Shown: positions 6,601-54,384, numbered from the stretch's first letter. The stretch is DNA of 64,000 nucleotides from a virus (IMGVR_UViG_3300031760_000012:33387-97386); one strand, 5' to 3'. Notes: a model not told the origin generated them from the letters alone. Made by a program: numbers and translations.

Positions 6601-9170
6601 TCGACGAAAACGGAAATCTTTCTCTTGGCGGAATCTATAAGCCGGGCAGTCAGGTTGATGGCTCCACAGAAGAAGGTCTCGAGGCGCCGTTCTATGTAGA
6701 CGCGCAGGGTAACATGTATGCGACATCCGGCACGTTTACGGGTGTTGTAAGCGCAGACAATTTGTTATTCAAAGATCCGACAACAGGTAATTTTGAAAGT
6801 GTTCTCGACGACCACAACCGTATCATGAGCAACTTTCTTGACCTCGGCGGCATACAGCTGGAGGGCGAGACCGGTAATATCACGATGAGCGGTACGCTAA
6901 ATCTAGGTGGACTGAGTAGCATCATCTGGGGAAACAATATCCCTGGGTCGACATACGAGTATTCTGATGACGGAATCACATGGGTCGCTGAGAATAAGGA
7001 TCAGGTTACGCTTGTAGTATCAACGGTGAACAATCCGGGTATAAAACAAGGAAATGTCAAAATCTTCTACGACACTGAGTTCCTTGAATTTGGTTCTATC
7101 ACGAACGGTTCTGTCTCATCGGTAATTGCTGAAAACGACAAGACAACCGGTTGTGTAACATGTAAATTCGGCAACGGGACAAGTACTGTTTCAGGGAATG
7201 GTACACTATGTACTTTGACATTTAACGTAAACGGACGAGTACGCGGCGACTATAAGTTCACTTCTGGCGGCAAATATACGTCAGACTCAGAGCGCGATGT
7301 TCCGGTTGTAAACATTCCATTTACGCTTGGCACGTCGTATGGTGAAAGCAGTGCTGTTACTGGGTCGCCGTTCAAATATCAGGCAACAACAACACAAGGT
7401 ATAAACGATAAGAAATACTGCAGAACTGTCACGAAGTACACAAAGCGCGACCAGGCGGGAAATCTTACGGAAATCATAAAGTACGGAGAGCCAACTCTTA
7501 CGACAACAGGATCGTATTTGCCGTCATATATCAAAGAGACTCATATTGACATGGGAGCGGTAACCTCTCCGTCGTTCCTTGGTAACGACATGTACGCAAT
7601 CAACTTTAAGATCGTCGACGGGTTTACTCAAGGAAGCGAAGGCACTGCTGTCCCGCAATCCATCCTAGGAACGATGGGTCAGATTAACGGATGGGCTGGA
7701 AAATACAAGTCTGACGGAAGTAAATTATACACAGTAGGCGTAGGACTACGACAAGATGACGACCATTACGTAATTTGTACAAGCCTTGGGACTAGGCTTC
7801 AGACAGGAACTGTTAACAATAATTCAGGAACCGGCTGGAGTAGTGTTGTTACAATGTCATCGTCTGCTTATATGGCGAGTGGTAATAGACTGTATCTTGG
7901 CTTAGAAAATAACAATGGAAGACTTATCGGCGGATATTTCAATGTAAATTCAAGCGGAACAAGAACGCCTAAGTCGATTGTTGAGATGACGTCTAGTGAA
8001 GCGAAAATGCAGTATTCCACATCTACATCTGGCGTATATTCAACCGTTAGCCTTACAGAATATGACGCAATAGTTAGCTACACAGACGAAGTATTTTTGG
8101 ATGCTGGGATTTCAGGCGTGACCATCCAGTATACAGCCAACAGTAAAATAGAAATTGGTGGCAGTATTAATATAGAAACAAAGGGCTATGAAACAAATAT
8201 TTCTATATCGGCAAATAATAACGCTGGCTTAAAAGCAAATAGTGGAACAGCATCGCTTATTGGAGCAACGTATACAGAGATCATGGCGACCCATAGCGCT
8301 GGCGCGAATGTACAGATAAAAGACTACGTTGGGAATGTCAGATGGACATCAAATAATTCCGAAGCAAGAATGCAGTATTCGTCAACTTCTGTCGCGTGTT
8401 CGTCAACAGGAATATCTATTGATTCAGGCAAGGCACTTACAATGACAGGAACTTCAATAGGTATTACAGCATCTGCCGGGACAACTATTAATACAAGTGG
8501 TAGTTACTCAACTGTCATACAGTCAGGCGGGTCAACAAGACTTTCAGCAGGATCACAAGGTATATGGCTTCACGGTCAAACTCCAACATCAAACTATGAG
8601 CATCCATATATCAAAGTAACAACAACAGAAGCTTATATGCAATACAGAACAAACAGATATCTAAACGTCGGCAATTCTGGCGTTGAGATGAGATTCGATA
8701 ATACTGGGTTTGTTTCTGTTAACAGCACAAATGCAAGACTTTCGTATGACACACTTGTGTATGTAAATTGTTACGGATCTGGCGTCGATATACGCGCTGG
8801 AAATTATCAAATGTGGATATATACAGACGGGTCTTACGGTCCTTCCGACATAAGATGGAAGAAAAATATTGAATATTCAGTAGACGGAGACCTTGTTGAT
8901 GAACTCAAACCGGTAAGATTTATGTATAACTGGGGAACAGATTATACTTATGGATTTATAGCTCAAGATGTGCGCGATGTAATTCCTGAGCTTGTTGGGG
9001 TTAAACATGGAGAAGGAGATCCAGAAGATGGTTATTTAGGGCTGAATTACGACGCATTCGTTCCTATCCTCACAGCAAAGCTCCAGAAACACACGCGGAT
9101 CATCAAAGAACAGGAAGACCGCATTGCAGAATTAGAACGACAGATAAGAGAGGTGAGAAACGATGGATGA
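3696..9170 (+). CDS. tail tip/fiber protein (1824 aa): N-terminal phage minor-structural (Tal-like) region, long beta-rich central part, C-terminal peptidase S74 intramolecular chaperone domain
   Basis: The C-terminus (DIRWKKNIEY...GFIAQDVRDVIPELV...LNYDAFVPILTAKLQ) matches the conserved auto-cleaving chaperone domain of phage tail spikes/endosialidases. It follows the TMP directly. RBS AAAGGAGGG; the true start may be the GTG at 3714. Confidence 0.75.
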   Translation: MKGGTLVIVDFQTIDIYDRQPTLVLKAPSGKVIQTLGYAHNIECSFNYSETSKLTFDLPAYVNGEPTPNYDKVVGEMIIDLVGWGLFILQNPSTTNTGIQETKSCTAYSLEYELTHRQMSLEEGTYNFWDSGVTAGDSPTTLMGIILQYCPGWSMGDVDNALIGKYRTFDQIQDNAYNVMMNTLQVPYNCIFSFDTYKRKINVIDANSDAPSNPIFISLDNLAKEIEINEQSENLITVLDVYGADDVDIRGANPLGTNKIYNLDYFMNEVHFDQETIDKWNAWKDTFEQNRQTYYDLSIRRAMKTSEKIALQARKTDEEGVLSTYETEQGVNIRQLSYGDETGAVQERLDELNDLIPQQRATITGTQLEIDEVQSELDDILAQLKEINEATAFESFFTDDEIEQLQHYFIENALEESSFAVNEYTSFSDESQTAADVPITSTVTGSQVTTVDPREGTNEEIYSFIDGTVEVSYGSYTDDDDVEHPRFTITASIKRGSAELNDTTEDDVTTRRLTETIVVGAGTKTDNKENNVSQFMNGTLIILGKHESTESDVADTEINVMREGSTLTCSVSEGDMYLTSQATLFEQYDVELDLYEFAQEELRKMAYPTYTFKIDTSNFLALEDFKQFASQLSLGQRLYIDIGTKVLEPILVGVEMSFEDLTDFSLSFSDTYHGDDNAFGLVDLLQKSVSMGHKLDLSKYSYGAYVNSGANTAVKDFMTSALDASKNAVVNAANQAVKIDESGIRLRNPDESGGFDDEQMWIINNNIVLTDDGWNTAKVAIGHFHDDNTGDGWGVVAPNIVGTLLAGENLVIESKKAGVPGSSGETSLFRVDGDGASLYNAKFELITPLGETSDGVGHYGNIVLDPELGIGIGSYSGAYTKQNVTRRGHSGQVDGIIFTSDDGSIREWNSDIMSGGLNSYDGNTNFWVDLDGSIHFKGTLEGADGQFTGSLKVGDPDGSLTGETHGLYVDENGNLSLGGIYKPGSQVDGSTEEGLEAPFYVDAQGNMYATSGTFTGVVSADNLLFKDPTTGNFESVLDDHNRIMSNFLDLGGIQLEGETGNITMSGTLNLGGLSSIIWGNNIPGSTYEYSDDGITWVAENKDQVTLVVSTVNNPGIKQGNVKIFYDTEFLEFGSITNGSVSSVIAENDKTTGCVTCKFGNGTSTVSGNGTLCTLTFNVNGRVRGDYKFTSGGKYTSDSERDVPVVNIPFTLGTSYGESSAVTGSPFKYQATTTQGINDKKYCRTVTKYTKRDQAGNLTEIIKYGEPTLTTTGSYLPSYIKETHIDMGAVTSPSFLGNDMYAINFKIVDGFTQGSEGTAVPQSILGTMGQINGWAGKYKSDGSKLYTVGVGLRQDDDHYVICTSLGTRLQTGTVNNNSGTGWSSVVTMSSSAYMASGNRLYLGLENNNGRLIGGYFNVNSSGTRTPKSIVEMTSSEAKMQYSTSTSGVYSTVSLTEYDAIVSYTDEVFLDAGISGVTIQYTANSKIEIGGSINIETKGYETNISISANNNAGLKANSGTASLIGATYTEIMATHSAGANVQIKDYVGNVRWTSNNSEARMQYSSTSVACSSTGISIDSGKALTMTGTSIGITASAGTTINTSGSYSTVIQSGGSTRLSAGSQGIWLHGQTPTSNYEHPYIKVTTTEAYMQYRTNRYLNVGNSGVEMRFDNTGFVSVNSTNARLSYDTLVYVNCYGSGVDIRAGNYQMWIYTDGSYGPSDIRWKKNIEYSVDGDLVDELKPVRFMYNWGTDYTYGFIAQDVRDVIPELVGVKHGEGDPEDGYLGLNYDAFVPILTAKLQKHTRIIKEQEDRIAELERQIREVRNDG

Positions 9171-11473: not shown

Positions 11474-12805
11474 GTGATGACGATTAGTAGATCGCATATT
11501 GCGTATGGAGCAAAAGACGATATACGGGGAGCGATCGCCGCGAAGAAGATCCCGAAGAATTGTCTCATCGTGACAAAGATCACAGATCCATACGAACAAG
11601 CAGAATTATTTTATTATGACAAAGAGAAAAACTTGCGCGCCCTCTCGACGAAGGAAGTGTTCAGCTCGCTGGAAGCAGCGACTGCATGGGTCAACTCGTA
11701 CTATTGCGTAGGCCGCCAGATCGTGGTTCTTGTGGACGACGAGTGGCACCTGTATACGGTCGACGCTGAGAACAATCTGGTACTGCGCGACGGAAGCGAC
11801 AAAGTCGCGGATATCGCCCCAGAGGACCCGTCCATTCATGTTGGCGGCACGAGCACATCCCCTACTATATCCGTCGTGATCGACCCGGTACTGGCGAACG
11901 GACTTGACATTGGCGAAGACGGAATCTTGCTGATGCCTGCGACACAGCAGACTGCAGGCGCGATTTCAGCAGCCGACAAGACGAAGCTGGACGGGATCGA
12001 GGCAGGCGCGGAAGTAAACACGATTCGCGACATCGGCACCGGAGCAACCGAGGGTACAATCTCTGTTAACGGCGTCGACGTGCGCGTCAAAGGACTCGGC
12101 TCAGCAGCGTTCACAGATTCGAACGCGTACCAGCCAATGGGAACTGGTATGAACTACGCTGTCGTCGAGGAGCTCCCTGACGTTGGTCGCACAGATACGA
12201 TTTATCTGAAGGCGAACAAGGGCGAGGAAAACAACGTATTCGACGAGTTCTTATACGTTAACGGCGTCTTCGAGTTAGTCGGAACTACCAAGACGGACCT
12301 GTCCGACTATTATACTCGTGGCGAAGCCGACAGAAAGATCAATTCAGTGGTCACAGAGGCGCTTATCCCAAAGGCGAACTCTGCTGATCTTGCCAAGGTC
12401 GCGACAACCGGATCGTACAAAGACCTGTCTGACAAGCCGAAGTTTCCGATCATCGTTAACTGTAAACAGAAGAGCGATGGTTATTACTACGCGGAGACTC
12501 CGTTCGGAACTGCGAAGAGCTTGCTCAAACAGGGACTGCAGGTCGCGATATACTGGCCGCCAACGAATATGGTGTTCCAGTGTACGATTTACAGCGACAG
12601 CACCAACGTCATGTACCTTGGCGTAATGGACAACACCACGTATCGTTTCTTACAGTGGACTGGCAGAAACGATCGTGTTGAAGAATATTCAAAAGCAACA
12701 TTTATCTCTAAAGAATACCTACAACTTTATTACACAAAAGAAGAGGTGGACGATATGTTTGCTCAAATCGAAGAAGATGAAATTACAAGAATGTGGGGTG
12801 TCTAA
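11474..12805 (+). CDS. tail-fiber-like protein
   Basis: 443 aa. Contains KTKLDGIEAGAEVN-type fiber repeat motifs and Gly/Thr-rich segments. Sits directly upstream of the giant fiber gene. Confidence 0.55.
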   Translation: MMTISRSHIAYGAKDDIRGAIAAKKIPKNCLIVTKITDPYEQAELFYYDKEKNLRALSTKEVFSSLEAATAWVNSYYCVGRQIVVLVDDEWHLYTVDAENNLVLRDGSDKVADIAPEDPSIHVGGTSTSPTISVVIDPVLANGLDIGEDGILLMPATQQTAGAISAADKTKLDGIEAGAEVNTIRDIGTGATEGTISVNGVDVRVKGLGSAAFTDSNAYQPMGTGMNYAVVEELPDVGRTDTIYLKANKGEENNVFDEFLYVNGVFELVGTTKTDLSDYYTRGEADRKINSVVTEALIPKANSADLAKVATTGSYKDLSDKPKFPIIVNCKQKSDGYYYAETPFGTAKSLLKQGLQVAIYWPPTNMVFQCTIYSDSTNVMYLGVMDNTTYRFLQWTGRNDRVEEYSKATFISKEYLQLYYTKEEVDDMFAQIEEDEITRMWGV

Positions 12806-15800
12806 TGAGCATAAAGTATTTAGGAGAATCAGGCACACGAACCCTCATCAACCAGCTTAAGTCTCGCCTTGCCGAATTTTACGACAAGACAGAGACCGAC
12901 ACAGCGATCGAGGTCGCACTTTCAGATGAGATCGCGCCACTGGCTGAGACGATTACGACGCTCAACCAGAACAGTGAGACATACTGTCAGGCACTGGAAG
13001 TTGACGAGGACGGTCTCGTGTGGCTGCTCAACAATGGACAAAGAATAGAAGGGCCATACGGACCTTTCGCTGGTGGCGGCGGAGGCGGCGGTGGCTCGTC
13101 AGTAGGCGGCGCAACAATGAGAGTCTCAAACACGACTGGATGGCTCTCGAATACCGTCGTCAAAGATGCCGAGTGCAAAGTCAGCATGACATGGTCTTCT
13201 ATTGAAGATGACATGCCTACAGGCGATGGTACTGTAAAGGTTTCCGTAAACGGAGTCTTGAAATCGTCGCGAAACGTAGCACAGGGTGCATTCGAAATCG
13301 ACGTAGCTCCTTATCTCGCCACCGGTACGAACATGGTACAGGTTGCTCTGTCTGACGTATACGGAACGAATCGTAAAATCAATTACACGATTACCGTAAT
13401 CGAGCTTTCGATCAGTTCTACGTTCGACACAACGGCAACTTTCTCCGGGAAGATCACCTTCCCTTACACTCCTGTCGGCGCGGCGACGAAGACAATTCAC
13501 TTCATCCTTGACGGGACGGAGCTTGACACACTGACAACGTCTGCGTCGAACAGACAATTATCATACGTTATTCCACAACAGTCTCACGGCGTTCACGTGT
13601 TCGAGTGCTACTTCGACGCTACCATCAACGGTCAGATCGTAACTTCGAACAGACTGTACTACGAGATCACATGCATCAATGAGGAAAGCTCCTCTACGAT
13701 CATCTCATCCTCGTTCAACCAGTCAACCGTGACGCAGTATACGACTCTGAACATTCCGTACAGAGTATATACACCGAGTTCGTCTACGTCACCTGTGACG
13801 ATCAAGGTTAACGGCGAGACAAAAGCTGAACTTACAGTCGACCGTTCAGAGCAGATCTTTACTTATAGACCGTCAACCCCTGGCACGCTTACAATCCTCT
13901 TTACATGTGGCGACGTTAATAAGACGATCACGCTTACAGTAGAGGAAGCCGAGGCTGACGTTCACGCTGAAACGCAGGATCTTGCTCTGTATCTGAACGC
14001 GATCAGCCGTAGTAACGCAGAAGCCGATCCATCGATCTGGCAGTACAACAACATCAAGGCGACATTGACGGGATTCAACTACATTATCGACGGCTGGCAG
14101 CAGGATGACGAAGGTATCGACGTTCTCAGAGTCGACGGAGATGCGCGTGTCACAATTCCGTACAATCTGTTCGGAACTGACTTTAAGTCGACCGGTAAGA
14201 CAATCGAGATCGAGTTCGCAACTCGTCAGGTATCAGACTACACAGCGACTATTATCTCTTGTTTCTCTGACGGCATTGGTCTTCAGATCACACCGCAGAT
14301 GGTAACATTCAGCGGCGCACAGACATCGACGAATACTCTTTACAAAGAGAACGAGCATATCACACTGTCAATCGTTGTTGAGAAGCAGAACGAGAACAGA
14401 CTGATCCTTGTTTATATCAACGGCATCATGTCAAGGGCGATCCAGTATGCGTCTGGTGAGCGTTTCTCACAGCTGAGTCCGGTTGGCATTAGTATCGGAT
14501 CTGACGACTGTGGTGTCGACATTTACAAGATCAGAGTCTACGACAATAGTTTGTCAAGAGAACAGATTCTGGACAACTGGATTGCGGATACTCAGGATGG
14601 TCCGACAATGCTCGAACGTTATAACCACAACGACGTGTACGACGAGTACGGTAGTGTATCGATCAACAAGCTGCCGAAGGATCTTCCATATATGATCCTT
14701 GAGTGCGACGAACTTCCGCAGTACAAAGGTGACAAGAAGAAGACTGTCAAAGGTTCGTTTACTGATCCAGTCGACTCATCAATGGATTTTACTTTTGATG
14801 GCTGCGAAATGGACGTACAGGGTACATCATCCGCTCCATACTACAGGAAGAATTTCGATATGAAATTTAAAGCCTGCGGATTCGACACAGCGTCTGGTAA
14901 TGTGCCGGTATACGCTCTCAGAAAAGGATCAATTCCGTTCAATCGTTTCGTCCTTAAGGCTGACGTTGCGTCATCCGAGTCAACAAACAACACTGGTCTG
15001 ACAATGTTTTATAACGATACATGTCCTTACAAGACCCGTGAGATGCTGGCCAACTCCAAGGTGCGTCATGGTATTGAAGGTATTCCAATTGTTCTTTATT
15101 GGCACGATACCGTCAACGACAAAACGTATTTTTGGGGCAAGTACAATTTCAACCTTCCTAAGCGTGCAAATACTCCGCTGGGCTATTCCGGTAATATGCA
15201 GTCTTGGGAATGGCAAAGAAACAACTCACCGAATGTTAAGTTCCAGGCGTCAGACTTCACGACTGAAATCTGGGATGAAGAAGCCGGTCAGTATAAGCCT
15301 TTATGGTACGACGACTTTGAGGCGCGATTCCCTGAAGATACATGGCGCGACTATACTCAGCTCAAGGAAATCCTCGACTGGGTAGTATCGACCGACAGGA
15401 CCAAGGCGACGAATGAAACGCTTAGTTCTCCTGTATCATACACTCTGGATAATACGCTCACGCTTGTGAACTATTCAGACGACACGAGTTATACAGTAAC
15501 CGATGCCGCCAACAACAAGAAGACGATTACGTTCACAAAAGATACTCCAGCTTATCGACTCACGAGGTTCAAAGCGGAATGCGGTGATCGCTTCGAAATG
15601 CAGTCTGCGTATTTCTATTACCTTTTCACAGAGCTGTTCTTAATGATCGACTCTCGTGCAAAGAATATGTTCATCGGCTTCAAGGGATCCGACGTTACGT
15701 TGCAAGGATCATCGCTTACGAGAAAGGCTGTGTTCGAGCCATACGATATGGATACCGCGATTGGTACTAACAACTCCGGTGTTCTGATGTTCGGATACTA

Positions 15801-18800
15801 CCTCGAAGATACTGACCATGTATCCAGCATTATCTCTGGCGGCGACGAAGGCGGAACTGATGCGCCTGTATTCAACGCGCAGGATTCTGTATTCTGGATG
15901 AACCTTAGAGACTCGTCAAGACCTGAACTTATGAGCATGTATAGAACGCTGAGAAGTGGTGCATGGTCATATTCGATCGTTGAGACAATGTTCGAAAATC
16001 ATCAGGCGAAGTGGCCAGAGGCGATCTTCAACGAGGACGCGTATGCGAAGTATTTAACTCCGCTTGTAGAAGCCGTTACGGTAGACGAAGAAACTGGCAA
16101 GCTCATCAAGACAGACCGTTACCTGACTATGCTTCAGGGATCTAAAACCGAGCAGCGTAAATGGTGGCTCAACGGGCGCTTCCGCTATATCGACTCCAAG
16201 TACAACACAGGCGATGCCGCCAACAAGTATATCTATATGCGTCTGTTCAATAACGGAACGCTGACGATTACCCCGGCGATCGACATGTACGTAGGAGCGA
16301 GCTTTGGCGGTGGAAGTACTCCGAACTTGAAGAGAACAACTGCGAATACTCCAGTTTCGTTCCCGTATCAGATGGACACGGGCGTAACCGAAATGGAAAC
16401 ATGGGTCTACTCCGCCGACTTGATCACAGACGTTGGCGATCTGGCTCCGCTATTCCCGAACGAACTGGACTTCAGTAGGGCGACCCGTATCAAGAATCTG
16501 AAGATCGGCGACGCATCACCGACCTACAGCAATGCGAACTTTAAGACACTGGACGTGCGGAACTCTGCCCTGCTCGAGACAATCGACGTACGGAACTGTC
16601 CGCAGCTGACGATTACGGTTAATCTCGAAGGATCGCCGAAGCTCAAAGAAGCGTACTTCGACGGAACTGCGATTACAGGTGTTGATCTGGTCGATGGCGG
16701 CGTGCTCGAGACGCTGCACCTGCCTGCGACGATTACGACGCTGACGCTGATGAACCAGAACAAGCTGACAGATCTGCAGATCGACTCTTACTCGAACGTG
16801 TCAAGGCTCATGCTGAAGGATATGAATCAGTCTGTTCTGAATCCACTGACCGTGCTTAGGCAGATCAGACCGAACGCACAGGTTTATATCAGCGGTCTGG
16901 AGCTGACACTGGCAACTGCTGCTGAGATCGAGGAGTTCTTGGATTTGCTCGACACGATGCAGGGTGTTGACCGTGAGAAGGGCACCGACGGATCGTGGGT
17001 TTACCATACGTATGATACTGCTCAGGTAGCTGGTGTTATTACGACAGGTTCGCTCACTGGCGCACAGGTTGCTTCGTACAACGCGAGATATCCGTACCTC
17101 GAGATCAACGCTGAGCATATTGAGTCAACGCTGACATATATGAATTTCGACGGGACGCAGACAATAAAGACTGTTCGGTGCTTGGATGGCGTGCCACAGG
17201 AAAGCGGTCCATCAGGTCCTACGAGGGAATCCACAGCACAGTACAACTTCACCTTTGTCGGCTGGAGCCGTGACAAGAACGCGGAAATTGCGCAGAGCGA
17301 CGCCGCGTCAAACGTCAAGGGCGACCGTACGATCTACGCTGCGTACACAAAGGCAATCAGATCGTATACAGTTACTTGGAAGAATCAGGGTACGACACTT
17401 AAGACAGACACTGTTGAGTATGGTGTTACTCCTTCATACTCAGGTCCGACCCCGACATATCAGGGACAGACATCGACTGGCTGGGACCCTGAGATTAGCC
17501 CGGTGACTGGCAATATTACGTATAACGCGACGTATCTGCCAAGATATACTGTTACATATTACAACGACACGACTGTAATAAAGACTGAGCAGGTTACGCA
17601 AGGCGCGAACGGTGTGCCACCTACTGAAACTCCGACGAAGCCTGGAAGCAATCCGGGAGATTACGAGTTCATGGGCTGGAATCCACTACCGAATAACGTA
17701 CAGGCGAACATGTCTGTATATGCACAGTACAAAGATAATCGGTCGGTTGTTGTTAAGTATTTGACGAATAGTCTTGATAAGTATGAAACGACATCGAATA
17801 CAACCCTGGCAGCAAACGCGTTCTATAATATGTCTTCGCTTACAGAAGTTTCTGGCCCGTTGACAACAATTGATTCATCAGCGTTCTCAAGCGCATCGAA
17901 TCTTACAAAAGTTGATCTGACCGGAACAAGCCCTGTGACGATTTCGACCACAGCGTTGGCAAGTAAGGCGAAATTGGACGCGTTGTTTATTCGCAGCACA
18001 ACTATGTCGTCTATGTCGAGCACGAGCAATCTCGCAGGCACAAAGATCTCTGCAGGAGCAGGAGCTATATATGTTCCGAGCGGATTGGTCGCGTCGTACA
18101 AAGCTGATTCAATATGGAAGAATTATTGCATTGCCTCGATTGACGATTATCCTATTACAGATTTCTCGACGATTACTGATTCGTGGGAGCAAATTTTCGC
18201 GAATGAGACTAATGGGTCGTATGCGAACAAGTATCACGTTGGTGACACAAAGAAGATCACCATTAACGGTGTCGAGGATTACATGCAGATAGTTGCCATG
18301 GAAGCAGATGATCTCGCTGATGGATCAGGCAAGGCAAAGATTACGTGGTTGAGCAAGGGATTATTCACGACTCATAAAATGAATGACACAGGTACCAACG
18401 CAAACGGCTGGGCTCAATCCGGTATGCGTACGTGGCTCAGAGAAACGATACTGCCTACGCTGGATTCAACAATTCAGAGCAATATCAAAGAAGTAACAAA
18501 GACGTATTATGATAAGACGACCACTTCGACATTATCAATCACAGATACGGTGTGGATCCCATCAGCTAGAGAAATATACGGAGGCACATCATACGAATCT
18601 GCAGGTTGTGATTATACTTCTCTGTTTAACTCAGATTCAGCACGCATTAAATATGACACATCAGGTACTGCCAGCGGTTGGTGGCTGCGTTCTGCTGATA
18701 GCAACAACGACACTTACTTCCGTTTTGTGCGTAGCTACGGTGGCGTGGGCAACGGCGGTGCCGGCTATACTTATGGCGTAGCCCTCGGCTTCTCGACTTG

Positions 18801-18801
18801 A
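12805..18801 (+). CDS. giant DGR target protein 1 (about 1998 aa), receptor-binding/tail-fiber type
   Basis: Features in order: poly-Gly linker (GGGGGGGGS); leucine-rich repeats (aa about 1240-1330 and BspA-like LRR near the C-terminus); three Listeria/Bacteroides-type (Flg_new-like) repeats; a C-terminal domain ...WWLRSA...GVALGFST whose last about 130 nt form VR1. The ATG at 12805 overlaps the upstream stop (TAATG); the track start at 12793 is a GTG. Confidence 0.8.
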   Translation: MSIKYLGESGTRTLINQLKSRLAEFYDKTETDTAIEVALSDEIAPLAETITTLNQNSETYCQALEVDEDGLVWLLNNGQRIEGPYGPFAGGGGGGGGSSVGGATMRVSNTTGWLSNTVVKDAECKVSMTWSSIEDDMPTGDGTVKVSVNGVLKSSRNVAQGAFEIDVAPYLATGTNMVQVALSDVYGTNRKINYTITVIELSISSTFDTTATFSGKITFPYTPVGAATKTIHFILDGTELDTLTTSASNRQLSYVIPQQSHGVHVFECYFDATINGQIVTSNRLYYEITCINEESSSTIISSSFNQSTVTQYTTLNIPYRVYTPSSSTSPVTIKVNGETKAELTVDRSEQIFTYRPSTPGTLTILFTCGDVNKTITLTVEEAEADVHAETQDLALYLNAISRSNAEADPSIWQYNNIKATLTGFNYIIDGWQQDDEGIDVLRVDGDARVTIPYNLFGTDFKSTGKTIEIEFATRQVSDYTATIISCFSDGIGLQITPQMVTFSGAQTSTNTLYKENEHITLSIVVEKQNENRLILVYINGIMSRAIQYASGERFSQLSPVGISIGSDDCGVDIYKIRVYDNSLSREQILDNWIADTQDGPTMLERYNHNDVYDEYGSVSINKLPKDLPYMILECDELPQYKGDKKKTVKGSFTDPVDSSMDFTFDGCEMDVQGTSSAPYYRKNFDMKFKACGFDTASGNVPVYALRKGSIPFNRFVLKADVASSESTNNTGLTMFYNDTCPYKTREMLANSKVRHGIEGIPIVLYWHDTVNDKTYFWGKYNFNLPKRANTPLGYSGNMQSWEWQRNNSPNVKFQASDFTTEIWDEEAGQYKPLWYDDFEARFPEDTWRDYTQLKEILDWVVSTDRTKATNETLSSPVSYTLDNTLTLVNYSDDTSYTVTDAANNKKTITFTKDTPAYRLTRFKAECGDRFEMQSAYFYYLFTELFLMIDSRAKNMFIGFKGSDVTLQGSSLTRKAVFEPYDMDTAIGTNNSGVLMFGYYLEDTDHVSSIISGGDEGGTDAPVFNAQDSVFWMNLRDSSRPELMSMYRTLRSGAWSYSIVETMFENHQAKWPEAIFNEDAYAKYLTPLVEAVTVDEETGKLIKTDRYLTMLQGSKTEQRKWWLNGRFRYIDSKYNTGDAANKYIYMRLFNNGTLTITPAIDMYVGASFGGGSTPNLKRTTANTPVSFPYQMDTGVTEMETWVYSADLITDVGDLAPLFPNELDFSRATRIKNLKIGDASPTYSNANFKTLDVRNSALLETIDVRNCPQLTITVNLEGSPKLKEAYFDGTAITGVDLVDGGVLETLHLPATITTLTLMNQNKLTDLQIDSYSNVSRLMLKDMNQSVLNPLTVLRQIRPNAQVYISGLELTLATAAEIEEFLDLLDTMQGVDREKGTDGSWVYHTYDTAQVAGVITTGSLTGAQVASYNARYPYLEINAEHIESTLTYMNFDGTQTIKTVRCLDGVPQESGPSGPTRESTAQYNFTFVGWSRDKNAEIAQSDAASNVKGDRTIYAAYTKAIRSYTVTWKNQGTTLKTDTVEYGVTPSYSGPTPTYQGQTSTGWDPEISPVTGNITYNATYLPRYTVTYYNDTTVIKTEQVTQGANGVPPTETPTKPGSNPGDYEFMGWNPLPNNVQANMSVYAQYKDNRSVVVKYLTNSLDKYETTSNTTLAANAFYNMSSLTEVSGPLTTIDSSAFSSASNLTKVDLTGTSPVTISTTALASKAKLDALFIRSTTMSSMSSTSNLAGTKISAGAGAIYVPSGLVASYKADSIWKNYCIASIDDYPITDFSTITDSWEQIFANETNGSYANKYHVGDTKKITINGVEDYMQIVAMEADDLADGSGKAKITWLSKGLFTTHKMNDTGTNANGWAQSGMRTWLRETILPTLDSTIQSNIKEVTKTYYDKTTTSTLSITDTVWIPSAREIYGGTSYESAGCDYTSLFNSDSARIKYDTSGTASGWWLRSADSNNDTYFRFVRSYGGVGNGGAGYTYGVALGFST
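18667..18796 (+). repeat. DGR variable region VR1 (3' end of target gene 1)
   Basis: Aligns over about 128 nt with the TR at 19271-19398. All 24 internal differences fall at TR adenines (AAC/AAT codons become GGC/TAC/CGT/AGC/GGT and so on). Confidence 0.85.
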
Positions 18802-19398: not shown

Positions 19399-19571
19399 TC
19401 AAGGCAGACAGAGTAACCATACGGCGAAATCAGTCCATGAAGAGAAGGAGTTTATAACCCTCCCGTATGGGTAAATGAATGCGCTGACGAGACAGAGTGG
19501 ACGCTGCTTGCATGGCAATATTTTATTGTTTCATACTCGGTCTCTACGAGTAGCGTACGAAAGGAATTTGT

Positions 19572-20672
19572 ATGACAAGCGAACAAAGGCATGCTGCAAG
19601 ACGAAAGCGACGTGAAGAAAAACGCCGCCAAAAGAAAGCTGAATTTATGTTGGATTACGACGATTTCGACAAGGTGTTTACATTTGACCATCTGTACAAG
19701 TCGTATGAAAAATGTCGCAGAAGCGTATCATGGAAATCGAGCGTGCAGAATTATATAGCTCAAGCTCCGCTAAAAGTTAATAACACGTTGAAAGAACTGC
19801 GAGAAGGTAAATTTAGAACAGACGGATTTTACGAATTCGACATATACGAGCGCGGCAAAATCAGACATATTAAATCTGTTACGATGCGCGAACGCGTTGT
19901 TCAAAGATGTTTGTGTGATTACGCCCTCACGCCTGTGTTATCAAGGACGTTCATATATGATAACGGAGCGTCGCTACCAGACAAAGGATACCATTTTTCA
20001 ATGAACAGAATTCAGGAGCACCTGAGAGAATGTGGTCGAGATGGATATATTTTACTTTTTGATTTTTCGCAATTCTTCGATAGCATTCCGCACGATATGG
20101 TAAAGGGCATTATCAGAAACGAATTTACTGATGAAAGGATTGTCGAGTTGTGCGACCATTTTGTCGACGTATTCGGCGACGTTGGACTAGGACTCGGATC
20201 TCAAATAAGCCAAATTCTCGCTCTGGCGGCAGTGAATCGTTTGGATCATTTTGTAAAAGAACACCTTAGAATACGTGGTTATGGAAGATATATGGATGAT
20301 GGTTATCTGATTCACAAAGATAAAGAGTATTTAAAATATTGTTTAAAAGAGATAAAAGCACTGTGTTCGGAACTTGGCATTGTGCTTAATCCAAAGAAAA
20401 CTCAAATCGTAAAAATTAGTCACGGATTCACATGGCTGAAATGTCGGTTCATTGTTACTGATAGTGGCAAGGTGATAAAGAAAATCTGCAAGAATTCGGT
20501 AACACGAGAGAGGCGTAAAATCAAAAAACTTTCAGCTATGCAACAACAAGGAATTGTCAGTATCGAGGATGTGACCGCATCATACCAGAGCTGGCGTGGA
20601 TATGCATCACACTTCGACGCATATCGTACAATCCAAAACATGGATAAATTATTTAAGGAGGAATTCTTATGA
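19572..20672 (+). CDS. DGR reverse transcriptase
   Basis: 366 aa. RT motifs present, including YMDD (RYMDDGYL) and the DGR-characteristic motif-4 variant LGLGSQISQ ([IL]GxxxSQ instead of QGxxxSP). RBS AAAGGAA. Located 170 nt downstream of the TR. Confidence 0.9.
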   Translation: MTSEQRHAARRKRREEKRRQKKAEFMLDYDDFDKVFTFDHLYKSYEKCRRSVSWKSSVQNYIAQAPLKVNNTLKELREGKFRTDGFYEFDIYERGKIRHIKSVTMRERVVQRCLCDYALTPVLSRTFIYDNGASLPDKGYHFSMNRIQEHLRECGRDGYILLFDFSQFFDSIPHDMVKGIIRNEFTDERIVELCDHFVDVFGDVGLGLGSQISQILALAAVNRLDHFVKEHLRIRGYGRYMDDGYLIHKDKEYLKYCLKEIKALCSELGIVLNPKKTQIVKISHGFTWLKCRFIVTDSGKVIKKICKNSVTRERRKIKKLSAMQQQGIVSIEDVTASYQSWRGYASHFDAYRTIQNMDKLFKEEFL

Positions 20673-27933: not shown

Positions 27934-29139
27934 CTAAAACCGTGCTATTGCGGAATTAATTTTGTTAATTTCATTTGGGATAGTTTCGTTCGTCATATGC
28001 GTATATTTAAGCGTCATATTATAAGACGAGTGTCCCATTATAGTCTGGACATAAATAGGCGACATGCCGACTTCGAAACACTTCGAGGCGAACGTATGTC
28101 GAAACAAGTGAGGGTGTATCTGCGGAATATCACGCGCAGGACGCCCTTCTTTTTTTGCGTTTTCCTCTTCCAGTGCGATCATACGTTCGCGGTTGTTGAT
28201 CATCAGACTTGCGAAGTTGTGCCTGATGTACGGTCTCCCTGTGCGCGGCACAATAAAGACAAGATCGTAATATTCTTCCTTATATTCTGGTGTCTTCCGC
28301 TTAATAAACTTCTCATGCAGAGCCTGTCGCTTCTCGCGCCACTCGGTTAGTAGCTCTCTCATGCCGCCAATGAAAGGAATCATGCGGTTGCCGGATTCCG
28401 ACTTCGGTCCGACGAATCGGCACTTCATATTCCCTTCGACGTGTGCACATGTAAGCGATCGCTGAATATGGATCAGCCCTTTGTCGAAGTCAATATCAGA
28501 CCATTTTAACGCAGACAGCTCTCCAACGCGGACCCCAGTCAGCAGCATGAACTTCAGCACCTCGTACCCAGGGCGACCCTTCATTACGTCGAAGAACAAT
28601 CTTACCATCCAGTCATCCAGCGCGAACGAAGGATTTCTCTTTCTGACGGCAGTGTTTATATGGATGTCGACGCATGGGTTCGTCTGGATCAGCCCGTTCG
28701 CCACAGCATATTTAAAGATCTGCCGGGTTGTGGATAACCCCGTTACAATCGTCGTAACACCGCGACCACTCTCGATCAGCTCGTTTGTGACACGCTGAAT
28801 GTCGATCTGATGTATATCTTCTAATCTGGCGGATCCGATCATCGCAGGATACGTATTGTCGTACTTCTTCCGGAAGAGCAGCTCATCCAGATCGCACTTC
28901 AGTTTCCGACGCTTCACCGTGTTAAACCATGTTTCGTACCATGAACCGAACGTGGTTTTTCCGGTGTTCCGTGTTTCTTCTTCTCGAATCGCTTCTTTGA
29001 ATTTAGCCCTGACTTCCGTCAGCGATCTCCCAGATGCGGAGACCGTCTTTCCGTCGATCATTTTCCGCGCGACGTATAATCCGTCAGGACGTTGCGATAT
29101 CCCCTTTCCTAATTCTTTTCCTTTTAAGCTTTTGCCCAC
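27934..29139 (-). CDS. int: tyrosine site-specific integrase
   Basis: 401 aa. C-terminal catalytic region HPHLFRHTFAS...GHSSYNMTLKYTHM (R-H-R-Y family). GTG start with AGGAGAG RBS. Confidence 0.9.
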   Translation of the reverse strand: MGKSLKGKELGKGISQRPDGLYVARKMIDGKTVSASGRSLTEVRAKFKEAIREEETRNTGKTTFGSWYETWFNTVKRRKLKCDLDELLFRKKYDNTYPAMIGSARLEDIHQIDIQRVTNELIESGRGVTTIVTGLSTTRQIFKYAVANGLIQTNPCVDIHINTAVRKRNPSFALDDWMVRLFFDVMKGRPGYEVLKFMLLTGVRVGELSALKWSDIDFDKGLIHIQRSLTCAHVEGNMKCRFVGPKSESGNRMIPFIGGMRELLTEWREKRQALHEKFIKRKTPEYKEEYYDLVFIVPRTGRPYIRHNFASLMINNRERMIALEEENAKKEGRPARDIPQIHPHLFRHTFASKCFEVGMSPIYVQTIMGHSSYNMTLKYTHMTNETIPNEINKINSAIARF

Positions 29140-29151
29140 TTTATCTCTCCT

Positions 29152-29337
29152 CTACTTGCCCGTAGATCCCATTCCACCATTCCTGACAGCAGTTGCGTTG
29201 TCGTCAGAAGTGATTCCATACGGCAAGAAGATGCCTTGTGCAAAACGCTCTTCTTTGTTGATAATTACATTATCGCTACTTGCTGTTACGCGCATTTTAA
29301 TCATAATATGCCCTTCGTTGTCTGCGTAATAGTAGTC
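29152..29337 (-). CDS. dut: dUTPase, exon 2 (C-terminal motifs 3b-5)
   Basis: DYYYADNEGHIMIK...ERFAQGIF...RNGGMGSTGK correspond to dUTPase motifs 3 (DYRGE-like), 4 (RIAQL) and 5 (GFGSTG). Confidence 0.65.
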   Translation of the reverse strand, partial: DYYYADNEGHIMIKMRVTASSDNVIINKEERFAQGIFLPYGITSDDNATAVRNGGMGSTGK

Positions 29338-30186
29338 CAATCATGTTACCCTACTGGCTTTTTATCCAATAGTTCCGGAGCTTTCGCTCTTTTAGGCTGG
29401 TCAATTCCAGCTCGGTTCAGCATATATTTTCATAATCAATTATGTCCCGCACTCTTGGGAATATTATTGCTTCCTTAACGCTCAATTCCTATGCGTTACA
29501 ACCCCCAGCGGTTACTGTGGGGTCACGGTATTAGCATAGGCACCACCCGTAGCCTCTACCGTTTTTGCGGGATTTTCCGACGCCGATTTACTATTACGCA
29601 GTGATGCATGCATCGATGTGTGATCTTGCAATGTCATGACTTTTAAATTATCAACATTATTATTTGTTCTATTTCCGTCTATGTGATGAACTACAAATCC
29701 TTGTTTTAAGTATGATTTCCCGTTAATATCAATCGAATTTTCAGGTGTTAACAAATATTGTTCTGCCACAAGTCTATGCTCAAGAACAAATCCATCGCAG
29801 TTGGCAAATGGATGATCTGGTGTTCTTACGAGTATATATCCATAAGTGTTAACTTTCTTGTCGGATTTCCATATTGGATTCTGTTCCCCTCTATTTCCGT
29901 AGTTTGGGTTGTTTTCTCCTTTATATAAAGTTTTTCTATACACAGCCATACACTCCATAGAGCAACAAGAACCATACTTGATTTTCTTTTGAGCTGATGG
30001 TCTCACATAATGAAGCTTTCCGCACACGACACAAGGAACCAGATTTTTATTATTCTTCTTTTTATATTCGCCTTCACACTGTTTGCTGCAAAAATGATGT
30101 TCGCGATCCAGTCTTTCTTTATGCTTGCAGTCAAAAGTCTTCCCGCAATTATCGCATACTAATTCCACATGCATTTATGCTACCTC
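29338..30186 (-). mobile_element. group I intron in dut (about 849 nt) carrying an HNH homing endonuclease ORF
   Basis: Exon 1 ends ...GIIDA on a U. The intron ends on a G immediately before GAC-TAC. Joining the exons restores motif 3 (GIIDA-DYYY). The dut reading frame hits a TAA right at the junction and the HNH ATG overlaps that stop. A Q-like element AAAUCCCGCAAAA is present (plus-strand 29563-29575). Confidence 0.6.
29512..30174 (-). CDS. HNH homing endonuclease (intron-encoded)
   Basis: 220 aa; Cys-rich N-terminal zinc motifs and HNH core GYILV...HRLVAEQ...VVHHIDGNRTNNNVDNL. Confidence 0.8.
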   Translation of the reverse strand: MHVELVCDNCGKTFDCKHKERLDREHHFCSKQCEGEYKKKNNKNLVPCVVCGKLHYVRPSAQKKIKYGSCCSMECMAVYRKTLYKGENNPNYGNRGEQNPIWKSDKKVNTYGYILVRTPDHPFANCDGFVLEHRLVAEQYLLTPENSIDINGKSYLKQGFVVHHIDGNRTNNNVDNLKVMTLQDHTSMHASLRNSKSASENPAKTVEATGGAYANTVTPQ

Positions 30187-30582
30187 AGCGTCGATAATTC
30201 CGCATGTGTTTTGCAGCGTTACCCCGTATTTAAATCCAAGTCCACTTCTTGGACAAATCGTAAAAACCCATCCGTCGCGGATCTTTACTCTTATCCCTGT
30301 TGGAATAACTACACCAACGCCGTTTGATGGAAGTGTAACCTTCAACGGAGATCTAATATCGTAGCCAGCAGATCCTGCAGTGCTGCGTTCTGGAAGACGA
30401 ATATCTTCCCATATCGCAAAGGCATCCTCCTTGCTTGTATACTCCCCGAGATCTTTAAGGCTTTGTTCAAAAATGGCAAAGCTTACCTTTTCAAAATTTC
30501 CCACTACTGGTATTTTTGCATTAAAATTCTCGTTTGTCAATTTAATAGTACCTCCTCTTGTTCCGGTTCCGCAAACGCGCAT
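30187..30582 (-). CDS. dut: dUTPase, exon 1 (motifs 1-3a)
   Basis: AGSAGYDIRS (motif 1), ICPRSGLGFKYGV (motif 2), NTCGIIDA (start of motif 3). Confidence 0.65.
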
Positions 30583-30890
30583 CCGATCTCAGCATCTACA
30601 AATTTTAGTTCTGCGTACATGTCAGACAACGTTCCGTGGTTGACAGACAGCAAGGCGTCAATCGCTTGAAGCCTTGCCATCATGTCCACTTTGTCCACAA
30701 GCTCATTGCCGAGTTGATCCAAGAGATCCTCTCGCTGCATGTACAGCATGTTAATTTCGTCGAGCAGTTCCTCTATCGTGAACTGTATCTCGTCTCCATA
30801 ATTCATTATTTCTTCTAACATGAAATCTCCGTATCCAATTCGTCGGCAACTGTACTTATCCATCCACGGTGATTGTGCGTAAGCGTACAT
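30537..30890 (-). CDS. hypothetical acidic protein
   Basis: 117-aa ORF; overlaps the annotated dut start region, so one of the two start sites is uncertain. Confidence 0.4.
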   Translation of the reverse strand: MYAYAQSPWMDKYSCRRIGYGDFMLEEIMNYGDEIQFTIEELLDEINMLYMQREDLLDQLGNELVDKVDMMARLQAIDALLSVNHGTLSDMYAELKFVDAEIGCAFAEPEQEEVLLN

Positions 30891-31567
30891 GCGGCTACAC
30901 GTTCGTCTTCCTTACTCAAGAACAGGTTAATCGTACTGGCGAACCCGCTGTTCTCTGGATGGCGGTACAGGTCCATCTGGCCCGTGTGACCTATGACGAT
31001 CACCTTGCACGAGTCGTGCATACGCGTCAGTGTTTTCTTTAGCTCCGACAAATAAAAGTTCTGAGCTTCGTCGATTATGACGACTTTGTTTTCGAAGTTC
31101 GTCCCACGCAGGAATGTGTGTGGCATACACTGGATGAACGCCGTTCCATTCTTCTTGCCTTCGAGGTTGTCGTCTGAGACAACGACTCTATTTGGGTCTT
31201 TGTTAATATTTATGATCGCTTCGTAAAGTGGCTCCATATATGGGGCTGTCTTCTGCTCCGTGCCGCCAGGCAGATAACCTTGTTTCTGTTCCTGTGTCGG
31301 CGCGACGATGTAAACGATCCCATCGTAAAGTCCATATTCATATAGCAAGTTAGCCGTGCCAAGCGCCACCGTGGTCTTACCGGTTCCTGCTTTGGCGTTT
31401 GCAAAGATGATCTTCTTCTGTGTGTTCCAGATCGCGTCTCGGAATACTTCTTGTTCATCGTCGAGAGACAGTCCGTAAAATATGTGATCATGTAGGTCTT
31501 TTGGAACGGACTGCCCTTTGCTACTGCTCGTCTTGCTTTTTGCCATCGTTACCTCCGATCTATTCAT
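30815..31567 (-). CDS. phoH: PhoH-like ATPase
   Basis: Walker A AKAGTGKTTVALG and the DEAQN motif characteristic of the PhoH family. Confidence 0.8.
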   Translation of the reverse strand: MNRSEVTMAKSKTSSSKGQSVPKDLHDHIFYGLSLDDEQEVFRDAIWNTQKKIIFANAKAGTGKTTVALGTANLLYEYGLYDGIVYIVAPTQEQKQGYLPGGTEQKTAPYMEPLYEAIININKDPNRVVVSDDNLEGKKNGTAFIQCMPHTFLRGTNFENKVVIIDEAQNFYLSELKKTLTRMHDSCKVIVIGHTGQMDLYRHPENSGFASTINLFLSKEDERVAACTLTHNHRGWISTVADELDTEISC

Positions 31568-50386: not shown

Positions 50387-50461
50387 TGGCACGGCGTAGT
50401 GGAGTCGAACCACTACTTTCTGGGTCAAAGCCAGACGGACTAACCGTTATCCGAACGCCGT
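50387..50461 (-). tRNA. tRNA-Gln (anticodon UUG), CCA encoded
   Basis: Manual fold: acceptor ACGGCGU/ACGCCGU, D-stem GGAU/GUCC, anticodon stem UCUGG/CCAGA with loop CUUUGAC, T-arm AGUGG-UUCGACU-CCACU, discriminator G, CCA; 75 nt. Confidence 0.8.
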
Positions 50462-50464
50462 TAG

Positions 50465-50540
50465 TGGCATACCCTGCAGGGCTCGAACCTGCGACACCCG
50501 GTTTTGGAGACCGGCGCTCTCCCAACTGAGCTAAGGGTAC
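50465..50540 (-). tRNA. tRNA-Trp (anticodon CCA), CCA encoded
   Basis: Manual fold: acceptor GUACCCU/AGGGUAU, D-arm GCUC-AGUUGGGA-GAGC, anticodon stem CCGGU/ACCGG with loop CUCCAAA, T-arm GCAGG-UUCGAGC-CCUGC; 76 nt; 3 nt from tRNA-Gln. Confidence 0.8.
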
Positions 50541-53125: not shown

Positions 53126-54084
53126 CTTTTTGATTGTTTATGTTTTGCAGGAGTAAACACTGCTCTCTCCTCATCCCATCCAAGCGTGTAAATGCGATTC
53201 CATATTGTTGAGCTGTTAACACCCGACAACTCAGACCATTCTTTAACAGTGTGCGATTCTCCATTGATTGTTATTGGACTATTCTTGCTTTTTACCGGTC
53301 TTGTAACAGCATCTTCAATGCTCCAACCTTTATACACCCTTCCTCTTAGTGTCTGTATATTTATGTCGAACCTTTCAGATAACTCTCTTAAAGTGTACTC
53401 TTCCCCTTTGTACGAATACTTTTTATTCAATTCCGCAACAGGAGTTTTTATTGCTTTGTCTGCATCCCACTTTCCTTTAGCGACTCTTGCTCTAAGAGTT
53501 ACTTTTTTAATCCTAAATTCGTCCGCCCATTCACAAGCACTCTTTACCTCTCCATCTAATTCCAATAAAATTGTTTTTTCTTTATTAGTACTTTGTGTTT
53601 TAATATCTACAAATCTGCAATTATCAGGACAATACCCTTTGTTAACGTTTATCCTATCAATAGTACACTCTCCGTAATCTGCATTTTCGTCATACCCGTT
53701 CGAAATAGCCCATTGTTTGAACTCTGAATAATCGTGCAGCCATTCATCACACACAGTTATCCCTCTTCCGCCATATCTTGCATACTTTTGATTATTCGTG
53801 TTATAACATCTTCCCTTCATACTCTCCCAGACATGGTACAATCTGTCATAACTGCCTCCATGTGTTAACGAGTTGGTGTGAATCTTTTCATCACGTAAAC
53901 ACCCACAAGATTTTGTATTACCGCTTCTTAAATTCGAACCTCTGACGTTTGTTATGTTTCCGCATTTACAACGACATTCCCATACTGGGGTTTTAATACC
54001 TGTTTCCGAAACATAGTCTTCAACACGCCTTAAAACAGTAAGTCGTCCAAAAGTTTTTCCGGTTAAATCTTTAAGTTTTCCCAT
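53104..54084 (-). CDS. intron-encoded homing-endonuclease-like DNA-binding protein (Zn ribbon + YxxWxxMxxRC...YGGRGI.VC.EW module + three HTH-like repeats)
   Basis: FGRLTVL...WECRCKCGN...SCGC and YHVWESMKGRCYNTNNQKYARYGGRGITVCDEW. Three repeats of the type EWADEFRIKKVTLRARVAKGKW, as in NUMOD-type homing-endonuclease DNA-binding modules. The last about 7 codons overlap dnaE exon 2 in another frame. Confidence 0.6.
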   Translation of the reverse strand: MGKLKDLTGKTFGRLTVLRRVEDYVSETGIKTPVWECRCKCGNITNVRGSNLRSGNTKSCGCLRDEKIHTNSLTHGGSYDRLYHVWESMKGRCYNTNNQKYARYGGRGITVCDEWLHDYSEFKQWAISNGYDENADYGECTIDRINVNKGYCPDNCRFVDIKTQSTNKEKTILLELDGEVKSACEWADEFRIKKVTLRARVAKGKWDADKAIKTPVAELNKKYSYKGEEYTLRELSERFDINIQTLRGRVYKGWSIEDAVTRPVKSKNSPITINGESHTVKEWSELSGVNSSTIWNRIYTLGWDEERAVFTPAKHKQSKRISTSIA

Positions 54085-54384
54085 ACTTCACCTCCCTTCC
54101 ACGAAACCTTACAACACTCCATGTTTCCATGGAGAATAGACTATATCTTTACTCTATCATTTAAGTCGCAGAGCACTCACCGCTGTCCCATATGGGCACT
54201 TAGTCGTTGAACGTTCTCCTGTTCGGAGCTTCGCTGCTGATTGCCTAATCGACGTCTTTTTCAAGCATTCGCGCTTATCTATATTTCATGATTACGCTGT
54301 AGCAGACGCCGCTCTAAAGGGTTTCCAGCAATTCAATGAGTATTTTTTCGAACGCTTACAGCGACATCAGCGAACGTTGGCAAT
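53126..54384 (-). mobile_element. group I intron in dnaE (about 1259 nt) with an endonuclease-like ORF extending across the 3' splice site
   Basis: Exon 1 ends ...IGKD (GAU) and the intron ends ...AAAAAG. The junction rebuilds the polymerase catalytic motif (xDIDIDC, compare PDIDIDF). P-like GAAUUGCUGGAAAC (plus 54321-54334), R element GUUCAACGACUAAGUG (plus 54197-54213), and S element AAAGAUAUAGUC (plus 54139-54149) are all present. Confidence 0.7.

Follow-up and report, generated by a model that had tools for sequence, protein, structure and literature searches.

In the prototype crAssphage the dUTPase gene (dut) is split by an HNH endonuclease gene, an arrangement that was described by Rossi et al. 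2020 (PMC7551546) on the basis of protein rather than of RNA structure; in the Carjivirus communis record (BK010471), gp34 is annotated as 'Dut, contains intron insertion' and gp35 as 'intron-encoded HNH endonuclease'. Here we analyze a dut locus in a 64,000-nucleotide (nt) stretch of viral DNA (IMGVR_UViG_3300031760_000012:33387-97386, the whole of which is called the window below), where the gene had originally been predicted to be split by a group I intron carrying an HNH homing endonuclease. Our analysis suggests that a mobile group I intron, which encodes an HNH homing endonuclease, has inserted into dut of the window between the Ala and Asp codons of motif III (GIIDA|DYYY), a reading to which we give a probability of roughly 0.88. 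The element is an ordinary one: the same kind of insertion, at the same dut site, has already been annotated and published in crAssphage.

Intron-borne HNH enzymes are represented by I-HmuI of SPO1 and its relatives, intron-encoded HNH nicking endonucleases of Bacillus phages; this system resembles the window element in that the HNH endonuclease resides within a phage group I intron interrupting a gene of nucleotide or DNA metabolism. Group I introns of the T4 td and Twort type make up subgroup IA2, which is defined by the helices P7.1 and P7.2 in Michel and Westhof's classification. The Bacillus phage papers covered here report introns in the terminase, DNA polymerase and nrdE genes, not in dut, and mention dUTPase and group I introns together but unlinked. 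The original prediction had called an intron with a homing endonuclease in dut a classic arrangement of Bacillus or Staphylococcus phages; this holds only loosely. The documented case that our search yielded is crAssphage, and Bacillus phage IEBH (see below) has a related HNH gene next to a complete dut, not an intron.

Results

Exon 1 of the gene (30187..30540) encodes motifs I and II and the first half of motif III (Pfam PF00692 profile positions 3-71, E 7.6e-12), and exon 2 (29152..29337; DYYYADNEGH...GGMGSTGK) encodes the second half of motif III together with motifs IV and V (profile 70-129). Both exons are also delimited by homologue alignment, and both lie on the minus strand, as do all features of the locus described below. 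A full-length trimeric dUTPase with its motifs in order is obtained only once 30186-29338 is removed, whereupon the profile match runs continuously from 3 to 129 (E 3.9e-19); this bears out the original proposal that excision of 849 nt restores the gene. The joined exons read GIIDADYYYADNEGHIM across the junction, the same as uninterrupted homologues (51-64% identity; closest 61-64%), and a search with the joined protein returns thousands of uninterrupted dUTPases of 165-195 amino acids (aa). The joined product is collinear with these and passes straight through the join, so that the alignment to dUTPases that had been put forward as a check comes out in favor of the prediction.

The sequence anatomy of the break can be read directly. 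The open reading frame (ORF) of exon 1 ends ...NTCGIIDA, with GCT at 30189-30187 (after GAC) and U 30187 as its last base; the frame continues into the intron for three codons (E V A) and then meets TAA at 30177-30175. Exon 2 begins with the codons GAC TAC from 29337, after G 29338, and ends with the stop TAG at 29154-29152. The U that ends exon 1 after GIIDA and the G that precedes exon 2 are thus located where the original prediction had them. Its placement of the stop codon needs a correction: the adjacency of this stop to the inner 220-aa ORF (TAAATG) stands, but the stop lies 9 nt past the junction and not exactly at it. The start of dut is likely TTG 30540 and not ATG 30582; GGAGG is found at 30555-30551, and the homologues P0001 and P0002 use the same start. 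A spliced mRNA would encode an intact 179-aa dUTPase. The predicted ligated-exon RNA junction is ...AUCGACGCU|GACUACUAU... (also given as ...AUUAUCGACGCU|GACUACUAUUAC...), and the junction-spanning peptide expected from spliced dut is GIIDADYYYADNEGH, while the unspliced fragments would be of 121 aa and 61 aa.

The intervening segment (29338..30186, 849 nt) runs from GAGGUAGC... to ...GGUAACAUGAUUG, its limits being given by the protein alignment at the junction; its assignment as an intron draws on covariation in an RNA family to which it belongs, and on a covariance model of that family, which scores 119 bits on 29415-29574. In BLASTN searches, 29499-29338 of the window finds matches of ~72% identity in unrelated phages (crAss-like cr6_1, Clostridium CB452P1 and Caldibacillus CBP1); none of the matching stretches is annotated, and each has an endonuclease-type ORF or a gene fragment on one side and, on the other, the resumption of a host gene. 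The 3' 260 nt of the intron are a member of a phage RNA family that a scan for a pattern of two conserved blocks finds in at least 120 viral contigs, a lower bound, and in 30 bacterial contigs, mostly of Bacillota.

The structure of this family was tested on 24 non-redundant, diverse members in a MAFFT alignment that was blind to structure. The named helices, namely P3 (pseudoknot), P4, P6, a six-pair P7 with one bulged nucleotide, P7.1 and the terminal hairpin, are paired in 97.8% of cells, compared to 34-46% in a control where partner columns were slid by 1-3 positions; double changes, affecting both sides of a pair, occur in 23 of the 33 pairs, and none of 500 shuffles attains the observed values. 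P3 is paired in 99.3% of cells with double changes at 6/6 pairs, P4, P6 and P7 are paired in 98.6-100%, and P7.1 is present and covaries. RNAalifold, run blind, recovers the nested helices P3, P4, P5, P6/P6a, P7.1 and the terminal hairpin. The hairpins P8 (21/24 members) and P9 (23/24) are both variable in length. The family thus has a conserved, covarying RNA structure. It includes the P3/P7 pseudoknot, and a group I core (P3-P7) of the kind that the original prediction called for can be assigned.

In the window, the 5' strand of P3 is at 29572-29567, P4 at 29562-29557 with 29530-29525, P5 at 29555-29552 with 29541-29538 and P6 at 29524-29515 with 29508-29500, assignments that draw on covariation, on RNAalifold and on the fold of the window's own RNA. 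The catalytic core (29419..29496) starts with the 5' strand of P7, A-(bulged C)-GCAUA at 29496-29490, which is assigned by covariation, as is P7.1 (29489-29485 with 29462-29458); they are followed by the single strand CAAGAGU (29457-29451), the 3' strand of P3 (29450-29445), which covaries in the pseudoknot, P8 (CAUAA/UUAUG, 29444-29440 with 29435-29431), J8/7 (29430-29425) and the 3' strand of P7 (UAUGCU, 29424-29419). The 3' domain (29338..29418) consists of the GAAC junction (29418-29415), P9 (29411-29407 with 29400-29396), P9.1 (GAGC-GAAA-GCUC, 29389-29378), the terminal hairpin CUAUUGG-AUAAAAAG-CCAGUAG (29372-29351), all seven pairs of which show double changes, and the tail GGUAACAUGAUUG. 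The last nucleotide of the intron is G 29338, and the conserved sequence ends ...UUG or ...AUG in most family members. When the window RNA is folded alone (z = -3.7), it gives the same local helices as the alignment, plus P8, P9 and P9.1; all core helices are intact.

Within P7, alignment columns 99/196 covary (A-U in 15 members, G-C in 9), column 100 is unpaired, and G101-C195 is invariant (24/24). This layout of a covarying pair, an unpaired nucleotide and an invariant G-C corresponds to the guanosine-binding-site geometry in the known Tetrahymena, Azoarcus and Twort group I structures, and by analogy it would play the same functional role here.

The 5' strand of P1 (30185..30193) is made up of the exon bases CGACGCU (30193-30187) and the intron bases GA (30186-30185). 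Its 3' strand is the internal guide sequence UC-GGCGUCG (29578..29586; guide proper 29578-29584), which lies 5 nt upstream of P3. The helix has six Watson-Crick pairs and, at the junction, a U.G pair between the splice-site U 30187 and G 29584. With the splice site held fixed from the protein alignment, and hence set independently of RNA pairing, a pairing as good as this one arises 11 times when the guide region is shuffled 20000 times, and at 0/229 other T positions. Only this form of the test is meaningful, because the unconstrained search for exon/guide complements is noisy in AT-rich loci; it was rejected, its top rank in the window being a spurious pairing at the start codon of the endonuclease gene. 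In family members that lack an ORF, a guide situated directly before P2 or P3 forms a local helix with the end of the exon, and the pair at the junction is in every case a U.G (for example GUCGGU|...GCCGAC in locus L088 and GGGGU|...GCCCC in L102), and the guide of the window occupies the same position as in the ORF-less L088 and L003 and in the crAssphage intron. The crAss-like cr6_1 intron (L001) was left out of the test, its 5' exon end not being located in a very AT-rich genome with recoded stop codons; the annotated coding sequence that precedes the intron ORF at this locus has an in-frame TAG (1699-1701), in line with reports of stop-codon recoding among crAss-like phages. The original assignment to group I is therefore backed by an assignable core with covariation, a guide that pairs through a U.G at the predicted junction, and a terminal G.

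The two strands of P1 are 603 nt apart in the window, and the HNH gene (29512..30174, 220 aa) therefore lies in the P1 loop. Residues 156-185 match Pfam HNH_3 (E 2.7e-9), and PHROG HNH endonuclease families match with E values down to 1.8e-16, which agrees with the earlier identification of the inner ORF as an HNH endonuclease. Its ATG (30174), 13 nt into the intron, abuts the stop of the exon 1 frame (TAAATG), and GAGG at 30186-30183 is likely its ribosome-binding site. At the other end, the guide, P3, P4, P5 and the 5' strand of P6 share sequence with the last ~75 nt of the gene, whose stop TAA (29514-29512) falls in the P6 loop. The N-terminus of the protein has two Cys-rich CxxC...FCSxxC-like repeats, not the NUMOD modules of other family members. 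A tblastn search with the HNH protein turns up homologues in crAss-like phages, where they are annotated as intron-encoded, and in Bacillus phage IEBH, next to dut.

In a related phage, represented by an 86-kb metagenomic contig (L124), the PhoH-dut-integrase order is retained and the intron of the window recurs at an identical position. The HNH gene of L124 is frameshifted and has 407 nt deleted between two CATCA repeats, while the ribozyme is 95.4% identical to that of the window; the 12 differences are compensatory or in loops, with compensatory sets in P6 and the terminal hairpin. Selection on the exons is seen in the codon changes between the two, of which 13 are synonymous and 3 non-synonymous in exon 2, and 17 synonymous and 20 non-synonymous in exon 1; the neighboring genes are 64-73% identical. 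A possible P10 pairing shifts from G-C to A-U between window and L124, which as a single event is weak evidence. The first 30 nt of exon 1 next to the intron contain 1 mismatch, compared to 3-9 further out. Such a gradient of exon identity could stem from co-conversion; it is only suggestive of it, because the same stretch encodes the conserved motif III. The comparison agrees with an intron that can still splice and that, once fixed, can do without its endonuclease, and it agrees as well with a lateral movement of the intron-dut segment.

Comparison with known systems

The crAssphage intron resembles that of the window in its host gene, in the codon boundary within motif III (PGTLDY|GYRGE versus CGIIDA|DYYYA), in an exon 1 that ends in U and an intron that ends in G, and in the position of the HNH gene in the P1 loop; the two HNH proteins are homologous over 97% of their length (32% identity, E 1e-18). 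Its guide GUAGUC, 6 nt before P3, pairs with GACUAU| 753 nt upstream, with three double changes relative to the window P1. The family model matches the crAssphage RNA over its full length (40.3 bits, E 1e-8), and the Rfam group I intron model RF00028 finds nothing in it, as in the window. The two differ in that the crAssphage intron measures 1016 nt and has the canonical P7 GACUA/UAGUC, and in that its HNH gene begins 83 nt into the intron, compared to 13 nt in the window. Furthermore, crAssphage is a very different, AT-rich phage of Bacteroidota, and its dUTPase is much diverged. A megablast search with 24 kb of the window against phage records gave no match; the window phage is distant from crAssphage, and its host probably belongs to the Bacillota.

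The Twort orf142 introns (AF132670) share with the window family the order of elements, a bulged P7 after the AAC of J6/7, a P7.1 that separates P7 from the 3' strand of P3, the J8/7-P7'-UGAAC block and a 3' tail GUAACAU(A/G)AUUG. Our family covariance model, R1, aligns full-length to the Twort introns I2 (29.7 bits) and I1 (27.6 bits), with E values of about 1e-6 to 1e-4 and with matching helices, and this establishes a relation to proven group I introns. In contrast to the window family, which has GCRUA/UAYGC as its P7, an invariant CAAGAGU strand and a terminal hairpin with a conserved AUAAAAAG loop, the Twort introns have the P7 GACUA/UAGUC and a P7.2, and they contain no ORF. Subgroup IA2 in its strict sense has both P7.1 and P7.2 between P7 and the 3' strand of P3, and in the window family the place of P7.2 is taken by the unpaired CAAGAGU; as R1 aligns end to end with the Twort introns, we place the element among the group I introns, in a lineage that we regard as IA2-like.

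In Bacillus phage IEBH, gp24 is a homologue of the window HNH protein (38.5% identity over 72% of the length) and is likewise associated with a dUTPase gene. The locus differs in having no intron: gp23 is a complete dUTPase, and neither RNA model matches. The HNH ORF of gp24 directly follows gp23 and ends in a duplicated dUTPase C-terminus (...ERGTNGYGSTGTK; also ...ADELSHSERGTNGYGSTGTK), and the locus (L157, 1116-2094) looks like the insertion of a free-standing endonuclease with duplication of the target's 3' end. IEBH was considered as a second Bacillus example of a dut intron and rejected in view of its complete dut and of an HNH gene fused to a duplicated dut C-terminus.

Among the loci of the family (L001-L123 from IMG/VR, L126-L155 from GTDB), one ribozyme scaffold carries different types of endonuclease: LAGLIDADG in L001 and others, GIY-YIG with NUMOD1 in L005, L010 and L017, HNH_3 with NUMOD in L031, and an unclassified type in L041, L051, L062 and L103. 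The position of the endonuclease ORF also varies, being in L1 in some members and running into P4' (i.e. P5) in others, and about one third of the members are without an ORF. Three family copies lie within 4 kb in L102 (921-1085, 2488-2642 and 4505-4663, plus strand), and in L013 a canonical RF00028 intron is found ~120 nt upstream of a family copy (6416-6578 and 6712-6890, plus strand). In L088 another phage dUTPase is split by an ORF-less family member (3040-3285, plus strand), 12 nt upstream of the site used in the window (ANGVG|VIDRDYY); this contig also has a canonical RF00028 intron (5270-5522, minus strand), on which the family model scores 73 bits.

In the window, dut is flanked on its own strand by a 117-aa ORF (30537-30890) that overlaps the dut start and lies downstream of a PhoH-like gene (30815-31567), and by a tyrosine-recombinase (Phage_integrase) gene (27934-29139) that begins 13 nt past the dut stop. 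A second group I intron (54117-54421, minus strand; RF00028, 92.7 bits) interrupts a DNA polymerase III alpha gene; the ORF at 54367-55560 has PHP and DNA_pol3_alpha domains, and the adjacent ORF at 53104-54084 (326 aa), which has no Pfam match, could either belong to the intron as its ORF or be an exon that has diverged. On the plus strand, an RT-2 RNA motif (RF03077, 104.9 bits; 19399-19578) directly precedes a reverse transcriptase ORF (19572-20672; RVT_1, E 3.8e-18), with a slight overlap between the two. A 2002-aa ORF (12793-18801) lies a short way upstream, and the arrangement recalls a diversity-generating retroelement. Two adjacent tRNA genes, tRNA-Gln (UUG) and tRNA-Trp (CCA), are located at 50387-50540 (minus strand).

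Discussion

We propose that a leftward transcript covers dut as well as the PhoH-like gene upstream of it, and that the 3' 260 nt of the intron would then fold into the ribozyme (P3-P9). P1 would form between the guide at 29578-29584 and the final seven nucleotides of exon 1, which lie 603 nt further upstream, with the U.G wobble marking the splice site. Bound in P7, a free guanosine would attack after U 30187, the terminal G 29338 would enter the same P7 site, and the exons would be ligated; these steps follow standard group I chemistry. Unspliced RNA would be the only message for the HNH protein, whose translation probably depends on ribosomes that end the exon 1 frame at the UAA and restart at the adjacent AUG, and because the 3' end of its gene overlaps the guide and P3-P6, its translation and the folding of the ribozyme should be mutually exclusive. 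The endonuclease presumably cuts the intron-less dut of co-infecting relatives at the conserved motif III sequence (site ...GGAATTATCGACGCTGACTACTATTACGCA...), with repair copying the intron in, and homing would follow. The same site and the same endonuclease lineage also occur in crAssphage, and the same intron is found at the same site in a relative whose neighboring genes are much more diverged.

Several observations weigh against a splicing group I intron with a homing endonuclease. RF00028 has no match at E<=10 either on 28900-30900 of the window or on its 341-nt 3' part (29300-29640), so that the search of the minus strand with a group I covariance model, suggested alongside the original prediction, did not go its way with this model. 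On the compact family member L088 the model reaches 11.6 bits, against a cut-off of 50. It does detect all three Twort orf142 introns (64-101 bits, compared to at most 11.6 bits in the window family) and the second intron of the window. The P7 of the family, GCRUA/UAYGC, departs from the canonical phage IA2 sequence GACUA/UAGUC, and there is no P7.2. P1 has to form across 603 nt, and an in-frame UUG directly precedes exon 2. The HNH protein has no sequence match among solved structures in the PDB (E<=1), I-HmuI included, from which it is also set apart by its Cys-rich repeats. Finally, splicing is predicted here from sequence and not from RNA data.

With respect to the first of these points, an Rfam cmscan returned only SCARNA7 and Ref70 at the intron, chance matches that we rejected, and no Intron_gpI. 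The failure of RF00028 reflects the limits of that model for this lineage, because on L088 it still places P3, P4, P5, P6, J6/7-P7 and P3' on the same segments as the manual assignment, even at 11.6 bits, and because R1 matches the proven Twort introns. RF00028 also detects other introns in the same family loci, and R1 scores 73 bits on an intron to which RF00028 gives 93 bits.

The alternative that survives best, in our view a distinctly improbable one, is that the element is a group I intron by descent that no longer splices and that dut has become a split pseudogene. The lack of a match to the curated model and the off-canonical P7 would both be compatible with such decay. However, the core helices are all intact in the window, and the changes in the ribozyme relative to L124 are compensatory or in loops while the endonuclease gene of L124 has decayed; the ratio of 13 synonymous to 3 non-synonymous changes in exon 2 is not expected of a dead gene, and the non-canonical P7 is common to 24/24 aligned members and itself covaries.

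Slightly less probable still would be an enzyme in two pieces, with dut expressed as two separately translated polypeptides, the second starting at UUG 29340, that assemble without splicing. A 62-codon ORF starting TTG GAC TAC from 29340 does encode exon 2 and is listed by the gene caller (62 aa), and such an arrangement would also account for purifying selection on exon 2. This UUG, however, belongs to the ribozyme, of which it is the conserved 3' terminus; the family ends ...AUUG or ...AAUG in unrelated host genes, and the UUG lies behind a stable hairpin and without a good ribosome-binding site. The break falls inside motif III, a conserved active-site segment, and two separate polypeptides would leave unexplained both the 260 nt of covarying group I structure and a guide that matches the end of exon 1.

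Any other intervening element we regard as very improbable: an intein, because the dut frame is broken by a stop; a group II intron, in view of ends that are not GUGYG...AY and the lack of a reverse transcriptase or domain V/VI in the element; and a free-standing endonuclease with target duplication, for which IEBH, with its related HNH gene beside an intron-less dut, provides a precedent, since no dut segment is duplicated in the window and neither exon is complete alone.

Conclusions

The mobile group I intron proposed here leaves our knowledge of how such introns work unchanged. For annotation, it would mean that two dut fragments with an HNH gene between them become one spliced dUTPase gene with an intron-encoded homing endonuclease. 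Window and L124 would then represent two stages in the life cycle of a homing endonuclease at one site, the one with an intact gene and the other with a decayed gene and a preserved ribozyme.

The lineage is marked by the P7 GCRUA/UAYGC, the lack of P7.2, the invariant CAAGAGU strand, a GGAUAAAAAGCC terminal hairpin and a GAUAACA tail, and it is present in at least 150 contigs of viruses and bacteria, within many host genes, with LAGLIDADG, GIY-YIG or HNH genes in different loops. More tentatively, and at somewhat short of even odds, we speculate that the window intron belongs to a large phage group I lineage undetected by Rfam, and that its pairing with an HNH gene has colonized the same motif III site of dut in phages of Bacteroidota (crAssphage) and probably of Bacillota. 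If this is true, the dut site would be a homing site that crosses phyla.

The public group I covariance model misses this lineage, including the published crAssphage dut intron, so that phage metagenomes probably contain more introns than RNA-based annotation has recorded. The family alignment and model built here would recover such introns, and if the lineage is as large as we suggest, many 'split' or 'truncated' phage genes in metagenomes would be genes interrupted by its unannotated introns.

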